Assembly: GCA_964016885.1 (NCBI GenBank)
Contig: OZ024753.1
Coordinates: 11,470,001-11,534,000, forward strand
From: Eledone cirrhosa
Taxonomy: Eukaryota
Direction of reading: 5' to 3'
DNA: 64,000 nucleotides
The notes under the pieces are model-generated. The model searched no databases. It was given only the letters and a program-made list of their open reading frames with translations, and was not told where the DNA came from. The translations under genes were made by a program, and so were the position numbers. Of this stretch, positions 4,679 through 58,938 are shown piece by piece (position 1 is the stretch's first letter; the number at the start of each line of letters is the position of its first letter).

Positions 4679-4779
4679 TGTTATTGTGTGTGTATATATA
4701 TGTGTGCGTGTGTCTATGAACAGTGTATATAGATCACAGACCCCCACATATACACACACACATTTATATATATATATAT

Positions 4780-5053
4780 ATATAAAGGACGTAAAATAAG
4801 AAAATATTTTTTTTAAAAAAATTTAAAAAAAATTTTTTTCTTACTTAAATTTTCACTCCAACTAATTAGTTTCTGCAATGGGATAAAGACAGTTATGTAA
4901 TCCAACTGTCGAGAATTCATTGCGTCATCAGGAAGTCTATTCTCAGTTAAGTCTCCAGGCAATGCGCGGACACTGGCGGCTCATATAAAAATAATAATAA
5001 TTCGGTAGATCGAACAGCTTGCGAGGACTGGATTCTATGTACCGAAATTCTCA
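4780..5053 (-). mobile_element. Inverted 274-bp partial copy of the 558-bp unit, containing a hammerhead at 4855-4936 (-)
   Basis: Reverse complement of 5406-5679. Confidence 0.95.
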
Positions 5054-5522
5054 TAAGTAAGAAAAAATTTTTTTTTAAATTTTTTTAAAAAAAATATTTT
5101 CTTATTTTACGTCCTTTATATTATTGTTCTGCATTCCCCTGCATTGAACCACCTAGGTACTATGACATAACCTGTGTATTTGCTGGCATGGGCGTGCATC
5201 TGTGCGCTTATGTTAGTTGATATATTAAATTATCTATATTTATCTCCAAATCACTGATTTGTCGAGCAAACTTGTCAAAACCACTTCTAAAAAAATTTTT
5301 TTTGGGGTGTTAGTAGGCGTCAGTCATCTTACCATCCCATTCCTTCTAACTAGCCTCTGTGTCACGTGATTGATTCTTTAGAATCGGCCATTTGACTTGA
5401 AGCAGTGAGAATTTCGGTACATAGAATCCAGTCCTCGCAAGCTGTTCGATCTACCGAATTATTATTATTTTTATATGAGCCGCCAGTGTCCGCGCATTGC
5501 CTGGAGACTTAACTGAGAATAG

Positions 5523-5604
5523 ACTTCCTGATGACGCAATGAATTCTCGACAGTTGGATTACATAACTGTCTTTATCCCATTGCAGAAACTAATTAGTTG
5601 GAGT
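5523..5604 (+). ncRNA. Type I hammerhead ribozyme, unit 1
   Basis: ACTTC-CTGATGA-c-GCAATG..GACAGTT..AACTGTC..CATTGC-a-GAAA-CT-AATT-AG-TT-GGAGT; palindromic ACTAATTAGT stem III, GUU triplet, predicted cut after 5599. Confidence 0.8.
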
Positions 5605-6080
5605 GAAAATTTAAGTAAGAAAAAAATTTTTTTTAAATTTTTTTAAAAAAAATATTTTCTTATTTTACGTCCTTTATATTATTGTTCTGCATTCCCCTGC
5701 ATTGAACCACCTAGGTACTATGACATAACCTGTGTATTTGCTGGCATGGGCGTGCATCTGTGCGCTTATGTTAGTTGATATATTAAATTATCTATATTTA
5801 TCTCCAAATCACTGATTTGTCGAGCAAACTTGTCAAAACCACTTCTAAAAAAATTTTTTTTGGGGTGTTAGTAGGCGTCAGTCATCTTACCATCCCATTC
5901 CTTCTAACTAGCCTCTGTGTCACGTGATTGATTCTTTAGAATCGGCCATTTGACTTGAAGCAGTGAGAATTTCGGTACATAGAATCCAGTCCTCGCAAGC
6001 TGTTCGATCTACCGAATTATTATTATTTTTATATGAGCCGCCAGTGTCCGCGCATTGCCTGGAGACTTAACTGAGAATAG

Positions 6081-6162
6081 ACTTCCTGATGACGCAATGA
6101 ATTCTCGACAGTTGGATTACATAACTGTCTTTATCCCATTGCAGAAACTAATTAGTTGGAGT
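6081..6162 (+). ncRNA. Type I hammerhead ribozyme, unit 2
   Basis: Identical to 5523-5604. Confidence 0.8.
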
Positions 6163-6638
6163 GAAAATTTAAGTAAGAAAAAAATTTTTTTTAAATTTAA
6201 AAAAAAAAAATATTTTCTTATTTTACGTCCTTTATATTATTGTTCTGCATTCCCCTGCATTGAACCACCTAGGTACTATGACATAACCTGTGTATTTGCT
6301 GGCATGGGCGTGCATCTGTGCGCTTATGTTAGTTGATATATTAAATTATCTATATTTATCTCCAAATCACTGATTTGTCGAGCAAACTTGTCAAAACCAC
6401 TTCTAAAAAAATTTTTTTTGGGGTGTTAGTAGGCGTCAGTCATCTTACCATCCCATTCCTTCTAACTAGCCTCTGTGTCACGTGATTGATTCTTTAGAAT
6501 CGGCCATTTGACTTGAAGCAGTGAGAATTTCGGTACATAGAATCCAGTCCTCGCAAGCTGTTCGATCTACCGAATTATTATTATTTTTATATGAGCCGCC
6601 AGTGTCCGCGCATTGCCTGGAGACTTAACTGAGAATAG

Positions 6639-6720
6639 ACTTCCTGATGACGCAATGAATTCTCGACAGTTGGATTACATAACTGTCTTTATCCCATTGC
6701 AGAAACTAATTAGTTGGAGT
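6639..6720 (+). ncRNA. Type I hammerhead ribozyme, unit 3
   Basis: Identical to 5523-5604. Confidence 0.8.
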
Positions 6721-7196
6721 GAAAATTTAAGTAAGAAAAAAATTTTTTTTAAATTTTTTTAAAAAAAATATTTTCTTATTTTACGTCCTTTATATTATTG
6801 TTCTGCATTCCCCTGCATTGAACCACCTAGGTACTATGACATAACCTGTGTATTTGCTGGCATGGGCGTGCATCTGTGCGCTTATGTTAGTTGATATATT
6901 AAATTATCTATATTTATCTCCAAATCACTGATTTGTCGAGCAAACTTGTCAAAACCACTTCTAAAAAAATTTTTTTTGGGGTGTTAGTAGGCGTCAGTCA
7001 TCTTACCATCCCATTCCTTCTAACTAGCCTCTGTGTCACGTGATTGATTCTTTAGAATCGGCCATTTGACTTGAAGCAGTGAGAATTTCGGTACATAGAA
7101 TCCAGTCCTCGCAAGCTGTTCGATCTACCGAATTATTATTATTTTTATATGAGCCGCCAGTGTCCGCGCATTGCCTGGAGACTTAACTGAGAATAG

Positions 7197-7278
7197 ACTT
7201 CCTGATGACGCAATGAATTCTCGACAGTTGGATTACATAACTGTCTTTATCCCATTGCAGAAACTAATTAGTTGGAGT
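7197..7278 (+). ncRNA. Type I hammerhead ribozyme, unit 4
   Basis: Identical to 5523-5604. Confidence 0.8.
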
Positions 7279-7464
7279 GAAAATTTAAGTAAGAAAAAAA
7301 TTTTTTTTAAATTTTTTTAAAAAAAATATTTTCTTATTTTACGTCCTTTATATTATTGTTCTGCATTCCCCTGCATTGAACCACCTAGGTACTATGACAT
7401 AACCTGTGTATTTGCTGGCATGGGCGTGCATCTGTGCGCTTATGTTAGTTGATATATTAAATTA

Positions 7465-7495
<31 letters not shown>

Positions 7496-8497: not shown

Positions 8498-9298
8498 CAC
8501 ACGAACTGTGGAACTAGTACCAACTTTGACTACCAACACACGAACTGTGGAACTAGTACCAACTTTGACTATCAACACATGAACTGTGGAACTAGTACCA
8601 ACTTTGAGTATTAACACACCAACTGTGGAACTAGTACCAACTTTGACTATCAACACACCAACTGTGGAACTAGTACCAACTTTGACTATCAACACATGAA
8701 CTGTGGAACTAGTACCAACTTTGACTATCAACACATGAACTGTGGAACTAGTACCAACTTTGACTACCAACACATGAACTGTGGAACTAGTACCAACTTT
8801 GACTATCAACACACTAAATGTGGAACTAGTACCAACTTTGACTATCAACACACCAACTGTGGAACTAGTACCAACTTTGACTATCAACACACGACCTGTG
8901 GAACTAGTACCAACTTTGACTACCAACACACCAACTGTGGAACTAGTACCAACTTTAACTATCAACACATGAACTCTGGAACTAGTACCAGCTTTGACTA
9001 CCCTACACCAACTGTGGAACTAGTACCACTTTGACTACCAACACACGAACTGTGGAACTAGTACCAGCTTTGACTATCAACACATGAACTGTGGAACTAG
9101 TACCAACTTTGACTACCAACACACGAACTGTGGAACTAGTACCAGCTTTGACTATCAACACACCAACTGTGGAACTAGTACCAGCTTTGACTATCAACAC
9201 ACCAACTGTGGAACTAGTACCAGCTTTGACTATCAACACATGAACTGTGGAACTAGTACCAACTTTGACTATCAACAACACCAACTGTGGAACTAGTA
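8498..9298. repeat. 39-bp minisatellite, ~20 copies
   Basis: Unit CACACCAACTGTGGAACTAGTACCAACTTTGACTATCAA. Confidence 0.97.
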
Positions 9299-38002: not shown

Positions 38003-41243
<3,241 letters not shown>

Positions 41244-41687
41244 AGACGTGTATATGTATATAGTTTCACTGAAGTGTATAGTACACAAAAAGAAACCATC
41301 GTTTGATGTCATATTATACTACATTCAAAGTATGATCACATCGGTGTCACCACAAGACAAATTCCTCTCACACCATGGTCCCTCATTCAAGTAAACAGAA
41401 CAGATATGTCACGATTATTCGTTTAATTTCAATAAAAATAAAACGAAGACATTCATCGAGCCAATAATGTAATCTTTATGTTTGCTCGATATTTCAATCG
41501 TTATTAGCCAGTTCAACTCACCTCACCACCTACATAGACTGTTTTGTAAAACGGCGCATGGTATACATTACTCCTGATACAAATTACGTTCTGGTTGTAG
41601 ATGGATTGTCTTTGATCACAGCTCTTTCCCTTCTGGACTGACTTGTATCACAATACGAGAATAACACCATTATTTCTAATATAGTAA

Positions 41688-42900: not shown

Positions 42901-42932
<32 letters not shown>

Positions 42933-42973
42933 CAAAATGTTAACAAATGAAAAATATTCGCATAATCAAAATA

Positions 42974-43043
42974 TATACTTTATTATATATATTTCAAAGG
43001 TTCTGTGCTGTTTTCTCAGTACGTCCTCATCAGACAAAATATA
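42974..43043 (-). ncRNA. Type I minimal hammerhead (family C), minus arm
   Basis: Inverted copy of 43151-43220 with one stem II mismatch. Confidence 0.7.
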
Positions 43044-43150
43044 TGATTTGATATATGACATACCGCTACGTTCTTGATTATTCAATTCCCGTATTGCCAA
43101 TACGGGAATTGAATAATCAAGACTGTAGCGGTATTTTATATATCAAATCA

Positions 43151-43220
43151 TATATTTTGTCTGATGAGGACGTACTGACAAAACAGCACAGTACCTTTGA
43201 AATATATATAATAAAGTATA
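43151..43220 (+). ncRNA. Type I minimal hammerhead (family C), plus arm
   Basis: TATATTTTGT-CTGATGA-GGAcGTACTG..CAGTACcTTT-GAAA-T-ATAT-A-TA-ATAAAGTATA; 10-bp stem I with GU pairs, AUA triplet, predicted cut after 43210. Confidence 0.75.
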
Positions 43221-43360
43221 TATTTTGATTATGCGAATATTTTTCATTTCTTAACATTTCAAATAATATTAAAAACTCCAGGAAAACCAACTGTTGAGTG
43301 CTTCTAATCTATTGTAAAACTGTATTCGTTGAGTAATCAACGTACCATATTAACCTTTGG

Positions 43361-43447
<87 letters not shown>

Positions 43448-46302: not shown

Positions 46303-49945
<3,643 letters not shown>

Positions 49946-49971
49946 ACTTTTTAGTCCATATATATATATAT

Positions 49972-50304
49972 GTGTGACTTTTTAGTCCAGCCAGCGACTT
50001 GAAAACTCTGGTATAAACACTACACTTGTGACAATTATTGACACATAGTGCTGGGCCCATGGTACCATGTGATGACAAGTGCAGAGAGATCTCCAGATAT
50101 AAAGCAATGTCTGTGCTGTGAAGCTTTTATAGTGAGCAAAGACACTGCACAAAACCAGTCCCACTCTCTTAACCAAGATGATATTTACCAAAAAGAAGAA
50201 CAAGTCAACATCATTGGATACCATCAGGGTTGCAGGTGTTATATCAGAGTTTTCCTCCTCCTAGAATTCTGCCTTGACAAAGGCTAAGGGGTCATCTCTC
50301 CTGG
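49972..50304 (-). mobile_element. Internal fragment of the RTE-derived element
   Basis: Reverse complement of ~3107-3441. Confidence 0.9.
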
Positions 50305-50339
50305 TATACATATATATATATATACATATATATATACAC

Positions 50340-50394
<55 letters not shown>

Positions 50395-50411
50395 TACATA
50401 TATATATACAC

Positions 50412-50444
<33 letters not shown>

Positions 50445-51225
50445 CATATATACATATATACATATATACATATATATAAATATATATATATATATACATA
50501 TATACATATATACATATATACATATATACATATATATAAATATATATATATATATACATATATACATATATATACATATATACATATATATACATATATA
50601 CATATATATACATATATACATATATACATATATACATATATATAAATATATATATACATATATACATATATATACATATATACATATATATACATATATA
50701 CATATATATATACATATATACATATATATATACATATATACATATATATATACATATATACAGATATATACATATATATATACATATATACATATATATA
50801 TACATATATACATACATATATACATATATATATACATATATACATACATATATACATACATATATACATATATATATACATATATATATATACATATATA
50901 TATATACATATATAGATATATATATAGATATATATATACATATATATATATATACATATATAGATATATATATAGTTATATATATACATATACATATATA
51001 TATATATATATAGATATATACATATATATATATATACATATATAGATATATATATAGTTATATATATACATATACATATATATATATATATAGATATATA
51101 TATACATATACATATATATATATATATACATATATATATACATATATATATATATATACATATATATATACATATATATATACATATATATATACATATA
51201 CATATATATATACATATATATATAC

Positions 51226-51264
<39 letters not shown>

Positions 51265-51399
51265 CAGATATATATATACATATATAGATATATATATACG
51301 TACATATATATATGCATATATACATATATACATATATATATACATATATATATATATACATATATATATACATATATATATATACATATATATATATAC

Positions 51400-51479
<80 letters not shown>

Positions 51480-51801
51480 ACATATACATATATACATATA
51501 TATTCATATACATATATGTACATATATATATATATAATATATATATACATATATATAATATATATATATTATATATATATATGTATATATATATATTATA
51601 TAATATATATATATTATATATTATACATATATATATTATACATATATATATATAATATATATATATACATATATATAAATAATATATATATATATAATAT
51701 ATTTATATAATATATATATATACATATATATATATAATTTTTAAACATATATATATATAATATATATATATATATACATATATAATAAATATATATATAT
51801 A

Positions 51802-51865
<64 letters not shown>

Positions 51866-51953
51866 ATATATATATATATACATATATATATATAATATAT
51901 ATATATACATATATACATATATATATATATAATATATATATAGTCATATATAC

Positions 51954-52050
<97 letters not shown>
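50305..52050. repeat. (CATATA)n/(TA)n compound tract
   Basis: Direct observation. Confidence 0.97.
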
Positions 52051-52051
<1 letters not shown>

Positions 52052-52328
52052 GGTGGCTGCCAACTCGTTTTCGAGTACGGCCACTACTTTATATCCATGT
52101 AGGAGAACCCCTACCGATGCGCTGAACGAGTGTGTCTTTTTAGTCCAGCCAGCGACTTGAAAACTCTGGTACAAACACTACACTTGTGACAATTATTGAC
52201 ACATAGTGCTGGGCCCATGGTACCATGTGACGACAAGTGCAGAGAGATCTCCTGATATAAAGCAATGCCTGTGCCGTGAAGCTTTTATAGTGAGCAAAGG
52301 CACTGCACAAAGCCAGTCCCACTCTCTT
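52051..52328 (-). mobile_element. 3' fragment of the RTE-derived element, C2H2 finger intact
   Basis: Reverse complement of ~3243-3518; [25 protein letters not shown]. Confidence 0.9.
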
Positions 52329-52333
52329 GTGTA

Positions 52334-52364
<31 letters not shown>

Positions 52365-52899
52365 TATATATATATATATATATATAATATATATATACAT
52401 ATATATACATATATACATATATAAATATAATATGTATATATATACACACATATATATATATATCACGTTCTTTGCTGCTAACACATAAATGGCTACACGT
52501 AGAGAGAGATACATCAGAATTTACACACCAATATAGATAGACAAATTCATTTTATTACATTTTAGATATTCTGGAAAGGGAGGTGAGTGTATATTTAAAA
52601 AAAAAACAAACATATTCGTCTCATGATAAATGAGATGCCCCTCGATAATATGAAAAATAAATCGAACGAAAGAAATAGGGATAAAAATGACGGATATTTC
52701 AGCCGTTTTAAATAATTTCTTTCAGTAGTATGAAGGAGTGATATATATGATAGAGTTAAAAAACTATAAAACTAAAGAATAACAAACTCGGAAATGAGAA
52801 GTCACCTTCACGTTAAGTTACATTTTCCTCAATAAATAAAAAAAAAGGTGTGTGTATGTATATATATATGAGTGTGTGTGTCTGTGTTTGAATATATAT

Positions 52900-53017
52900 C
52901 TCTATATATATATATATATATACACACATATATATATATATAATTTATATATATATATACATATATATATATAATTTATATATATATATATATATATACA
53001 CATATATATATATAATT

Positions 53018-53049
<32 letters not shown>

Positions 53050-53385
53050 CATATATATATAATTTATATAATTATATATATATACACATATATATATAAT
53101 TCATATATATCTATATACATATATATATATATATACACACACATATATATATAATTTAGAATATATACACATATATATATAATTCATATATATATACATA
53201 TATATATATATACACACAAATATATATAATTTATATATATATACACACATATATATGTAATTTATATATATATACATATATATATACACATATATATATA
53301 AATTTTTATATATATATATATACATATATATAAACACATATATATATATAATTTATATATATATATATACACACGTATATATATA

Positions 53386-53434
<49 letters not shown>

Positions 53435-53511
53435 TATATAATTTATATATATATACACATATCTATATAATTTATATATATATATATATATACACACATA
53501 TATATATAATT

Positions 53512-53545
<34 letters not shown>

Positions 53546-53835
53546 TATATATATAATTTATATATATATATATATATATACACATATATATATAATTTAT
53601 ATATATATATATATATATACACATATATATGTAATTTATATATATATATATTTATAAGTTATATATATATATATAATTTATATGTATATATATAATTTAT
53701 ATATATATATACACATATATATATATAATTTATATATATATGTATATATATATAATTTATATATATATGTATATATATATATATGTATATATATATATAA
53801 TTTATATATATATATGTATATATATATATATAATT

Positions 53836-53879
<44 letters not shown>

Positions 53880-53936
53880 ATTTATATATATATATATATA
53901 TATATAATTTATATATATGAATATATATATATATAT

Positions 53937-53978
<42 letters not shown>

Positions 53979-54001
53979 TTTATATATATATACACACACA
54001 C

Positions 54002-54063
<62 letters not shown>

Positions 54064-54637
54064 TAGTGTGTGTATACATGTGCATGATTGTTTGTTTGCG
54101 TATCGTCTTCTATTAACCCTATTTGCTCCCTTGCAAGAAACGCATCCAGTGAAATGCTGTTGACAGGAAAGGGATTTTAGAGAAGATCTCAAGATTTACG
54201 GCCATTTTGACCCCGAATGATACACCAGGTCAAACTAACAACTATATATTTCATGATTGTTTAGTTATCTTATCGGCTCCATAATACATCACGTATACAT
54301 ACACACGCTCATGCAAACATATATATACTCACATATATATATACTTAAATACACGCATACATATATATACTTATATACACGCATACATATATAAACTTAT
54401 ATACGCGCATACATATATATACTTATATACACGCATACATATATATACTTACATACACGCATACATATATATACTTACATACACGCATACATATATATAC
54501 TTATATACACGCATACATATATATACTTATATACATATATATACTTATATACATATATATACTTATATACATATATATATACATATATATATATACATAT
54601 ATATATACATATATATATATATATACATATATATACA

Positions 54638-54669
<32 letters not shown>

Positions 54670-54852
54670 CATATACATATATATATATATACATATACAT
54701 ATATATATATATACATATATATATATACATATACATATATATATATATATATACATACATATATATATATATATATATACATACATATATATATATACAT
54801 ATATATATACACTTATATACACGCATTTATATATATATATATATATATATAT
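52900..54852. repeat. TA-derived minisatellites (CACATATATATATAATTTA; ATACTTATATACACGCATAC)
   Basis: Direct observation. Confidence 0.9.
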
Positions 54853-57711: not shown

Positions 57712-57719
57712 TTTTAAAA

Positions 57720-58782
57720 CATGGGTTAACATAGCAACATGTATGAACATCCCATGAAACATGATGTACAAGAGTACTATGAAACAACCTCCTCCAAAAC
57801 ATGGTGTACCATAGCCACATGTATCAAAATCCCATGAAACATGATGTACCAGAGTACCATGTAACAACCTCCTACAAAACATGGTGTACCATAGCCACAT
57901 GTATCAAAATCGCATGAAACATGATGTACCAGAGTACCATGAAACAACCTCCTCCAAAACATGGTGTACCATAGCCACATGTATCAAAATTCCATGAAAC
58001 GTGATGTACCAGAGTACCATGAAACAACCTCCTCCAAAACATGGTGTACCATAGCCACATGTATCAAAATTCCATGAAACATGATGTACCAGAGTACCAT
58101 GTAACAACATCCTCCAAAACATGACGTACAAGAGTACCATGTAACAACATCCTCCAAAACATGGTGTACCATAACCACATGTATCAAAATCCCATGAAAC
58201 ATGATGTACAAGAGTACCATGTAACAACATCCTCCAAAACATGGTGTACCATAGCCACATGTATCAAAATGCCATGAAAGATGATGTACAAGAGTACCAT
58301 GTAACAACCTCATACAACACATGGTGTACTATAGCCACATGTATCAAAATCCCATGAAACATGATGTACAAGAGTACCATGAAACAACCTCCTCCGAAAC
58401 ATAGTGTACCAGAGCCACATGTATCAAAATCACATGAAACATGATGTACCAGAGTACCATGTAACAACATCCTCCAAAACATGATGTACCAGAGTACCAT
58501 GTAACAAAATCCTCCAAAACATGGTCTACCATAGCCACATGTATCAAAATCCCATGAAACATGATGTACAAGAGTACCATGTAACAACATCCTCCAAAAC
58601 ATGGTGTACTATAGCCACATGTATCAAAATCCCATGAAACATGATGTACAAGAGTACCATGTAACAACATCCTCCAAAACATGGTGTACCATAACCACAT
58701 GTATCAAAATCACATGAAACATGATGTACAAGAGTACCATGTAACAACATCCTCCAAAACATGGTGTACCATAGCCACATGT
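57720..58782. repeat. Minisatellite of two related 40-bp units (80-bp higher-order repeat)
   Basis: A: CATGGTGTACCATAGCCACATGTATCAAAATCCCATGAAA; B: CATGATGTACCAGAGTACCATGTAACAACATCCTCCAAAA. Confidence 0.95.
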
Positions 58783-58938
58783 TTCACCAGCCCAGAAAAG
58801 ATGATTTGTTAAATTAGAATTTCAGTATTGATTCGTTTCTGTTATACATATATTTACTCTTATGTGTTAACATAAACGGGAATGTATGTATACATATATG
58901 TATGTATATGCAAGCATAAATGTATGTGTGTGTTTGCA

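Follow-up and report, generated by a model that had tools for sequence, protein, structure and literature searches.

Inserts of a 558-nt repeat in Eledone cirrhosa that have two arms end, almost without exception, once at each of two fixed sites, and the two arms of an insert carry one haplotype. The pairing of the 3' ends and the sharing of haplotypes form the main footprint of how the repeat is copied, and the 12-nt offset of one 5' end from a predicted ribozyme cut, which a preliminary description of the window (the whole stretch of 64,000 nucleotides analyzed) had singled out, is at most a weak one. Judging from these patterns, we consider it probable (roughly 65%) that a Penelope-like reverse transcriptase (RT)-endonuclease cut a (TA)n microsatellite and used both resulting DNA ends as primers on a single RNA, monomeric and probably circular.

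Loci and counting rules

The genome comprises 3.0 Gb and yielded 871 candidate loci, of which the best 40 were scored. Altogether, 140 regions were examined, the window and 139 others, or about 14% of roughly 1,000 loci. Three sets make up the 139: the 39 other best-scoring loci, the first 80 of the 93 loci not yet covered among 100 of the 299 ends at site A, and the first 20 of the 75 unpaired ends among 100 of the 800 ends at site B (for the two sites, see below). The second and third sets were picked by one outer end, a choice that took no account of the inner ends or of the other arm. Arms were placed on a ruler of tandem units. Two-armed inserts were counted at an identity of at least 84%, which left out nine rows below that value, and the second copy in L138 was also left out. 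Arms below 90% identity did not enter the 5'-end and variant tests, and L115, L142, and L143 were excluded from the variant tally of 124 inserts and from the tests of arm length and 5' ends. Homopolymer zones and hairpin H1 were masked in variant calling.

Structure of the insert in the window

The unit is 558 nt long (5600-6157 in the window), and its position 1 is the base after the predicted GUU/G cut. A short inverted arm and a longer forward arm, which passes four cut sites and whose units are 99.3 to 100% identical, stand head to head within a TA microsatellite (Table 1). The preliminary description had the positions right: the forward start (TAAG) at unit 13 is equivalent to 5612, 12 nt past the predicted cut, and the outer ends at 4780 and 7471 fall at TATAT motifs that merge with the flanking (TA)n. 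A target-site duplication is unreadable because both flanks are (TA)n.

Table 1. Features of the 558-nt repeat insert, in window coordinates
Feature	Position	Strand	Basis or remark
Left (TA)n flank, target microsatellite	4765..4779		sequence
Inverted arm, 274 nt, unit 365-558 + 1-80 (0.49 unit), outer end at site A	4780..5053	-	blastn, 100% complementary
Site A, TATAT of unit 76-80, putative priming site 1	4780..4784	-	299 such ends genome-wide
Type I hammerhead motif in inverted arm, predicted cut between 4860 and 4859	4855..4936	-	
Head-to-head joint of arms (unit 365 / unit 13), blunt, zero overlap	5053..5054		
Forward arm, unit 13 to unit 198 (4.33 units)	5054..7471	+	
AT-rich hairpin H1 (unit 14-66), 10-14 nt upstream of site A, in all units	5055..5107	+	unit fold
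Type I hammerhead copy 1, predicted cut (GUU/) after 5599	5523..5604	+	sequence
Hammerhead copy 2, predicted cut after 6157	6081..6162	+	
Hammerhead copy 3, predicted cut after 6715	6639..6720	+	
Hammerhead copy 4, predicted cut after 7273	7197..7278	+	
'Tail' (unit 81-198), between the two end sites	7354..7471	+	term as in the available text of PMC8557442 and PMC11167929
Hairpin H2 (unit about 137-182), 12-16 nt upstream of site B	7410..7455	+	unit fold
Site B, TATAT of unit 194-198, putative priming site 2	7467..7471	+	800 such ends genome-wide
Right (TA)n flank	7472..7495		

Elsewhere, the window contains two tandem arrays (39 nt by 20.6 copies at 8498-9298 and 80 nt by 13.4 copies at 57716-58786) and two very long TA-rich tracts (38006-41262 and 46304-54852).

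Hammerhead motif and assignment to the retrozymes

The hammerhead consists of stem I (ACUUC/GGAGU), CUGAUGA, a long stem II, GAAA, and a palindromic stem III (ACUAAUUAGU), with the predicted cut after GUU. Four complete cores spaced 558 nt apart and one inverted core lie in the insert, and 4,082 exact copies of the core occur genome-wide. In 15 diverged sequences the core is near-invariant and the changes in stem II are complementary. Two features are odd and expected to weaken hammerhead cleavage: the triplet is GUU, and C stands opposite A (C.A) at the base of stem II. The unit matched no hammerhead model of Rfam in gathering or E-value mode (hits to snoR144 and Yar_2 were rejected as chance), and the core does not form in the lowest-energy RNAfold structure. 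Self-cleavage of the unit RNA is predicted from the motif. At unit position 485 (window 6084), a T-to-C change that turns a U.G pair of stem I into C-G is fixed in 25 of 124 inserts.

The repeat is dispersed (281 matches across many contigs within the best 40 of the 871 candidates), multicopy, and nonautonomous, has no LTR/PBS layout, and is built of noncoding tandem units with a type I hammerhead in each. No frame of at least 170 codons was found inside the unit, so that it is without an RT plus GIY-YIG frame of its own. By such sequence criteria it is an animal non-LTR retrozyme, and it carries the Penelope 'tail' signature as well: a head-to-head inverted, 5'-truncated copy, two end sites that bound a one-sided tail, and a (TA)n target. 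Single-unit variants amount to 0.05%, and the family comprises roughly a thousand young inserts.

Outer ends

Exact counting across the genome found the unit joined to (TA)n 299 times at site A and 800 times at site B, with 127 more B ends that carry added TC; reversed-pattern controls gave no such join. Both sites lie 10 to 16 nt 3' of a long hairpin, and in H2 paired changes are visible in an alignment of diverged copies. Other TATAT sites of the unit are joined to (TA)n 7 times (unit 179-184) or not at all (unit 431), which argues that placement by the hairpin counts and not microhomology alone. Most A ends (114 of 115) and B ends (93 of 98) are followed by a pure TA run of at least 6 nt, and in 26 of 45 one-armed inserts such a run also adjoins the 5' side. 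The earlier suggestion that synthesis was primed on a TA microsatellite is supported.

The two sites are used as a pair. In the 140 regions, 90 of 92 distinct two-armed inserts have one end at A and the other at B (91 rows before duplicates are merged). As to the exceptions, closer inspection showed L115 to be A+B too, and L143 stops at the foot of H1, 16 nt before A. Coordinates alone place a divergent B end less than 15 kb from 25 of 39 A ends on one contig (C1). There were no divergent A-A pairs among 100 listed A ends, no B-B pairs among 100 listed B ends, and no tail-to-tail joints within an insert among the 140 regions. The one-of-each rule extends to four other hammerhead families, in which all eight head-to-head pairs that could be read obey it (two more pairs were unreadable). 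In a 531-nt sister subfamily it was found in about 20 of 30 loci showing a second arm, and the exception there, an apparent B+B insert (L202), lies within a rearranged flank. Further apparent B-B pairs were two neighboring A+B inserts each (L201, L203, L227/L228) or tandem duplicates (L204, L205).

The window holds a small head-to-head insert of one of the four other hammerhead families in (TA)n (42930-43361, with cores at 43033, minus strand, and 43161, plus strand), the arms of which end about 55 and 151 nt past the motif, one at each site, as well as lone hammerhead motifs of two further families (2421 and 61273, both plus strand) with a TA run about 50 nt later. In L047, L068, and L071, the 558-nt element is nested in the TA tails of other hammerhead families.

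The preliminary description had envisaged a single TA-primed cDNA that ended near the ribozyme junction and then switched strands, folding back to produce the inverted arm. Such a course would account for the shared haplotypes described below, and it agrees with the containment of one arm in the other in 76 of 90 inserts, with an excess of near-palindromic joints, and with a mild excess of ends at unit 1-13. The window insert is one of the nested ones, and therefore the window alone cannot decide on folding back. In 8 of the 90 inserts, each arm has at least 15 unit positions missing from the other, and folding back cannot make these, because each arm holds sequence that the other lacks. It also offers no reason why the second arm should end at the other fixed site, and the cut is far from most ends. 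The strand switch was thus not borne out, the inverted arm having its own fixed end joined to TA, and we regard this course as improbable.

One haplotype per insert

At six polymorphic sites, the two arms agreed in 305 of 306 comparisons, where independent templates would have given about 74 mismatches. Of 130 variants at sites present in both arms, 69 occurred in every unit and 60 in one arm. Among 124 inserts, 120 variants were fixed in all covering units, 91 were confined to a single unit, and 6 were partly shared. Twelve variants were unique to one insert, 'private' status being assessed on about 140 of roughly 1,000 loci, yet were fixed across both arms, one of them spanning as many as 12 units. 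To obtain uniform arrays that carry rare variants and reach 15 units, a monomer bottleneck followed by re-amplification is needed, and an RNA circle would be the simplest route to both. The several rounds over one template that had been proposed at the outset are likewise supported.

The main rival to a circle keeps the twin priming at the two sites but takes the template to be a linear multimer, transcribed from a uniform source array and left uncut. If the source were uniform to begin with, such a multimer would yield the same uniform daughters, which counts against the circle reading, and scarless junctions would follow as well. In the available text of PMC11167929, the anole Penelope-like protein has uncut RNA as its dominant substrate. 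Of 17 joints at which both arms stop at about one unit position, 10 have a lap difference of 0, as a single 5' end predicts. In a related hammerhead family, the insert at L141:3100-5200 carried along about 200 nt of former flanking DNA in both arms, which suggests that read-through transcripts get copied. With a linear multimer, however, new mutations would reach both arms in a unit-specific manner. Of 31 single-unit variants for which the other arm covers the unit of the same index, none was shared, and 1 of the 130 variants above was found in both arms without being in all units. Daughters would also never be longer than their sources, yet rare variants are fixed in 5 to 15 units, and the lap number differs in 7 of the 17 joints. 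We hold a linear template to be possible, at a distinctly minor share of the odds.

Short inserts might also have been expanded afterwards and homogenized by unequal crossing-over, gene conversion, or assembly polishing. A variant is common to adjacent units in L032, L039, and L165, L051 looks expanded, and L138 is duplicated whole. The 91 unshared single-unit variants against 6 partly shared ones speak against such a history, as do fixed variants that cover inverted arms and lengths that are continuous and not whole units; we consider it very improbable indeed. Unequal crossing-over, named at the outset as the alternative, is for the same reason (variants fixed across inverted arms) not favored. 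It appears to have acted occasionally (L051, L138), without accounting for inverted arms or continuous lengths. In L051 (881-9273), 6 units of a 15-unit arm carry the variant 10G, spaced in a pattern of roughly five units, from later duplication or a multimeric template. The six partly shared variants and this irregular pattern point to some later local duplication.

Inner ends, arm lengths, and joints

The forward 5' end in the window had been taken to lie near the cleavage junction as a trace of reverse transcription. After correction for exposure, inner ends are not significantly enriched within 12 nt on either side of the cut (14 of 208 versus 10.8 expected; P = 0.19), and the claim holds only as a slight excess on the 3' side. 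At unit 1-13 there are 12 of 204 ends versus 5.5 expected (P = 0.011), two-armed inserts have 9 of 133 versus 2.5 (P = 0.001) once the initial 210 nt are set aside, and four ends fall exactly at the cut versus 0.8 expected (P = 0.011). These bins were picked post hoc, contain the window insert, and overlap the AT hairpin (14-66), itself mildly enriched. Ends at unit 4-66, which takes in this hairpin 3' of the cut, number 42 versus 27.0 expected (P = 0.002). The two- to threefold excess just 3' of the cut is real but small, and it is likely that a few percent of cDNAs run off cut RNA. More than 90% of the inner ends lie away from the cut-site bins, scattered round the unit, and the 12-nt offset was rejected as a fixed feature. 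The window insert, whose other inner end is at unit 365, may have stopped on cut RNA at unit 13; this is indistinguishable from chance, since one of two inner ends would fall within 12 nt of the cut in 8.8% of inserts.

Most arms (185 of 209) cross the predicted cut, the forward arm in the window doing so four times, and 128 exceed one unit and 76 exceed two. Conceivably, the RT passes repeatedly, by template jumping, over a self-cleaved linear monomer that hammerhead stems I and III hold together at its ends, or a DNA circle is copied. Either would also give a monomer bottleneck, and the ends exactly at the cut would fit. Template jumps usually leave scars, however, and 451 crossings of the cut site are free of indels and added bases; that so many arms run past the cut also argues against such a template, which we find quite improbable.

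Arm lengths are exponentially distributed (n = 121; mean, 861 nt; Kolmogorov-Smirnov P = 0.97). Lengths within 15 nt of whole units are not enriched (10 of 205 arms versus 11.4 expected), which disposes of a preference for whole units and agrees with the noninteger multimers anticipated in the preliminary description. At the joints, inverted microhomology of at least 2 nt is present in 61% of 69 blunt or overlapping cases, versus 17% by chance, and filler sequence is present in 14 of 83. Both arms end within 15 nt of one unit position in 17 of 83 joints, versus 5.2 expected (0 of 10,000 permutations), with lap differences (17 of 90 inserts) of 0 in ten, -1 in four, +1 in two, and +2 in one; in L076, both arms stop at 558/1. 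Breakage of a single RNA while two polymerases were copying it would produce such joints, and palindromes account for some of them (local palindromes are present in L063, L120, and L168). Arms that stop at the other priming site are not in excess (3 versus 2.9 and 3 versus 2.3), a point against the mechanism favored here, and collision of one RT with that site was rejected.

TC tracts at site B

In the sister subfamily, the internal site B reads TCTCTAT. Of its terminal B ends, 382 have at least five TC units and 18 have none extra, and 339 internal copies are unexpanded. In 30 sister loci, the TC tract measures 11 to 65 nt and lies mostly between the element and (TA)n. No opposite flank in these loci starts with GA, TA being found instead, and the tract is therefore unlikely to be target DNA. 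Tracts of (TC)n, 9 to 65 nt long, stand between the terminal site B and (TA)n in L171-L200 and L224-L235, internal copies being without them. Among 85 B ends from the best-scoring set and the set anchored at A, 80 have just one TC, and 12 expanded loci of the main type are more diverged (85 to 96%).

Stutter of the RT fits the TC tracts and the longer TA at primed ends, where TA runs have medians of 37 and 31 nt versus 15 nt at the 5' side of one-armed inserts (P = 1e-7). Later slippage is an equally good reading of the TC tracts, and the correlation of TC with TA lengths (rho = 0.81; n = 24), the single TC at most of those 85 B ends, and the greater divergence of the expanded main-type loci fit it. 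As to age, tract length does not correlate with divergence within the insert (rho = -0.08; n = 25), and unexpanded loci are not younger (3.5% versus 4.2%; P = 0.67; n = 10 and 25), some of these values being inflated by nearby repeats.

Candidate partner enzymes

Of 111 long frames from the loci, 58 were scanned against Pfam and 10 were rescanned loosely. Frames of Penelope-type RT plus GIY-YIG were found within the sampled loci (L097:3000-4715, L110:1591-5285, L073:5901-7942, L137:638-4095, L130, and L112); they belong to several families, and some are split over two or three frames. Their DNA has no similarity to the 558-nt unit above background, and none was linked to it as a partner. A 775-codon frame without a Pfam match (L072:289-4229, minus strand) lies between hammerhead motifs 3,940 nt apart. 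Related frames occur in L066, L114, and L143, and a GIY-YIG-like YVGST occurs in L066, L071, and L099. Possibly, this is an RT-less or diverged Penelope-related element. A 762-codon frame in L111 (1852-4137, minus strand) combines leucine-rich repeats with a TIR domain, as in Toll-like receptors.

Discussion

The mechanism that we favor would start from tandem transcripts that self-cleave and then circularize. An RT dimer would hold sites A and B of one RNA, and each 3' end of the cut (TA)n would anneal to UAUAU at A or at B. Both RTs would then circle the RNA, displacing strands as they go, until they dissociate or the RNA breaks, and the two cDNA ends would be joined through short microhomology. 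Failure of one DNA end would leave a one-armed insert, and a minority of cDNAs would stop where the RNA had been cut, the ribozyme site included.

In L1 twin priming, both DNA ends prime on one RNA and a head-to-head inversion results. The 558-nt inserts differ from this in being without poly(A), in the fixed position of the second site, and in arms that overlap over many units and do not tile.

Biochemical precedent comes from Poseidon PAc of the green anole. In the available text of PMC11167929, this Penelope-like protein, a predicted dimer, cuts and extends both strands in vitro and starts at two internal sites of the RNA that bound the tail, as the two sites would here; it prefers uncut RNA. 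Its first start lies 85 to 92 nt after the hammerhead cut, compared with 76 to 80 nt in the 558-nt unit. Two differences stand out against the same text: one start of the anole protein is not homologous to the target DNA, whereas both sites of the 558-nt unit match theirs (TATAT), and the anole start site is the same on both strands, whereas the two ends of the 558-nt inserts use different sites. Both, like the preference for uncut RNA, count against the mechanism favored here.

As far as the available text of PMC8557442 goes, inserts of EN+ Penelope-like elements are tandem, with an inverted, 5'-truncated copy, a tail of 30 to 40 bp at one end, and (TA)n targets, and the 558-nt inserts resemble them in the inverted truncated arm, the one-ended tail, and the TA microsatellite target. 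They differ from that description in that the unit has no reading frame, the tail is 118 nt long, both arms may span many units, and the one-sidedness of the tail could be put into numbers, as a near-strict A+B rule.

Animal non-LTR retrozymes, as described in the available text of PMC7229834 and bioRxiv 10.64898/2026.07.22.740005, share with this family noncoding tandem units with one type I hammerhead each, a GC content below 50%, a dispersed distribution, and coexistence with Penelope-like elements, and rolling-circle reverse transcription is the model proposed for them there. The unit of 558 nt is longer than the 170 to 400 nt given in the former source and falls inside the range of 51 to 972 given in the latter. 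Head-to-head arms, fixed paired ends, and haplotype sharing, as found here, are absent from the available parts of both descriptions. Retrozyme RNA circles are documented in coral, mussel, and axolotl in the text available of PMC7229834, where their reverse transcription is proposed without demonstration; the 558-nt family is known from DNA sequence. Our literature search returned no account of paired A+B ends or of haplotype sharing in retrozyme inserts, although older Penelope papers may have the asymmetry. Apparently new, then, and not reported in what we found, are the near-strict pairing of sites, the single haplotype across multiunit inverted arms, and the hairpin-plus-UAUAU modules.

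A more speculative extension, which we hold to be possible but less likely than not, is that a telomerase-related Penelope RT dimer grips the two hairpin-plus-UAUAU modules on a ribozyme-made circle, pairs each with one end of the cut (TA)n, stutters on the short template as telomerase does, and rolls from both ends. It would add TA, and TC where the RNA reads UCUCU, before rolling. The origin of the tandem, inverted, and 'tail' structures of Penelope inserts is stated to be undefined in the available text of PMC8557442. If stuttering and rolling were true, all three would come from one step, and these elements would be a source of dinucleotide microsatellites.

In summary, the 558-nt family offers about 1,000 young inserts that follow a countable rule, one end per site and one template per insert. 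It defines a 200-nt RNA element, with two hairpins and two UAUAU sites, together with its (TA)n target. It also predicts a coupling of strand to site; the published assay saw none, as far as the available text of PMC11167929 shows.
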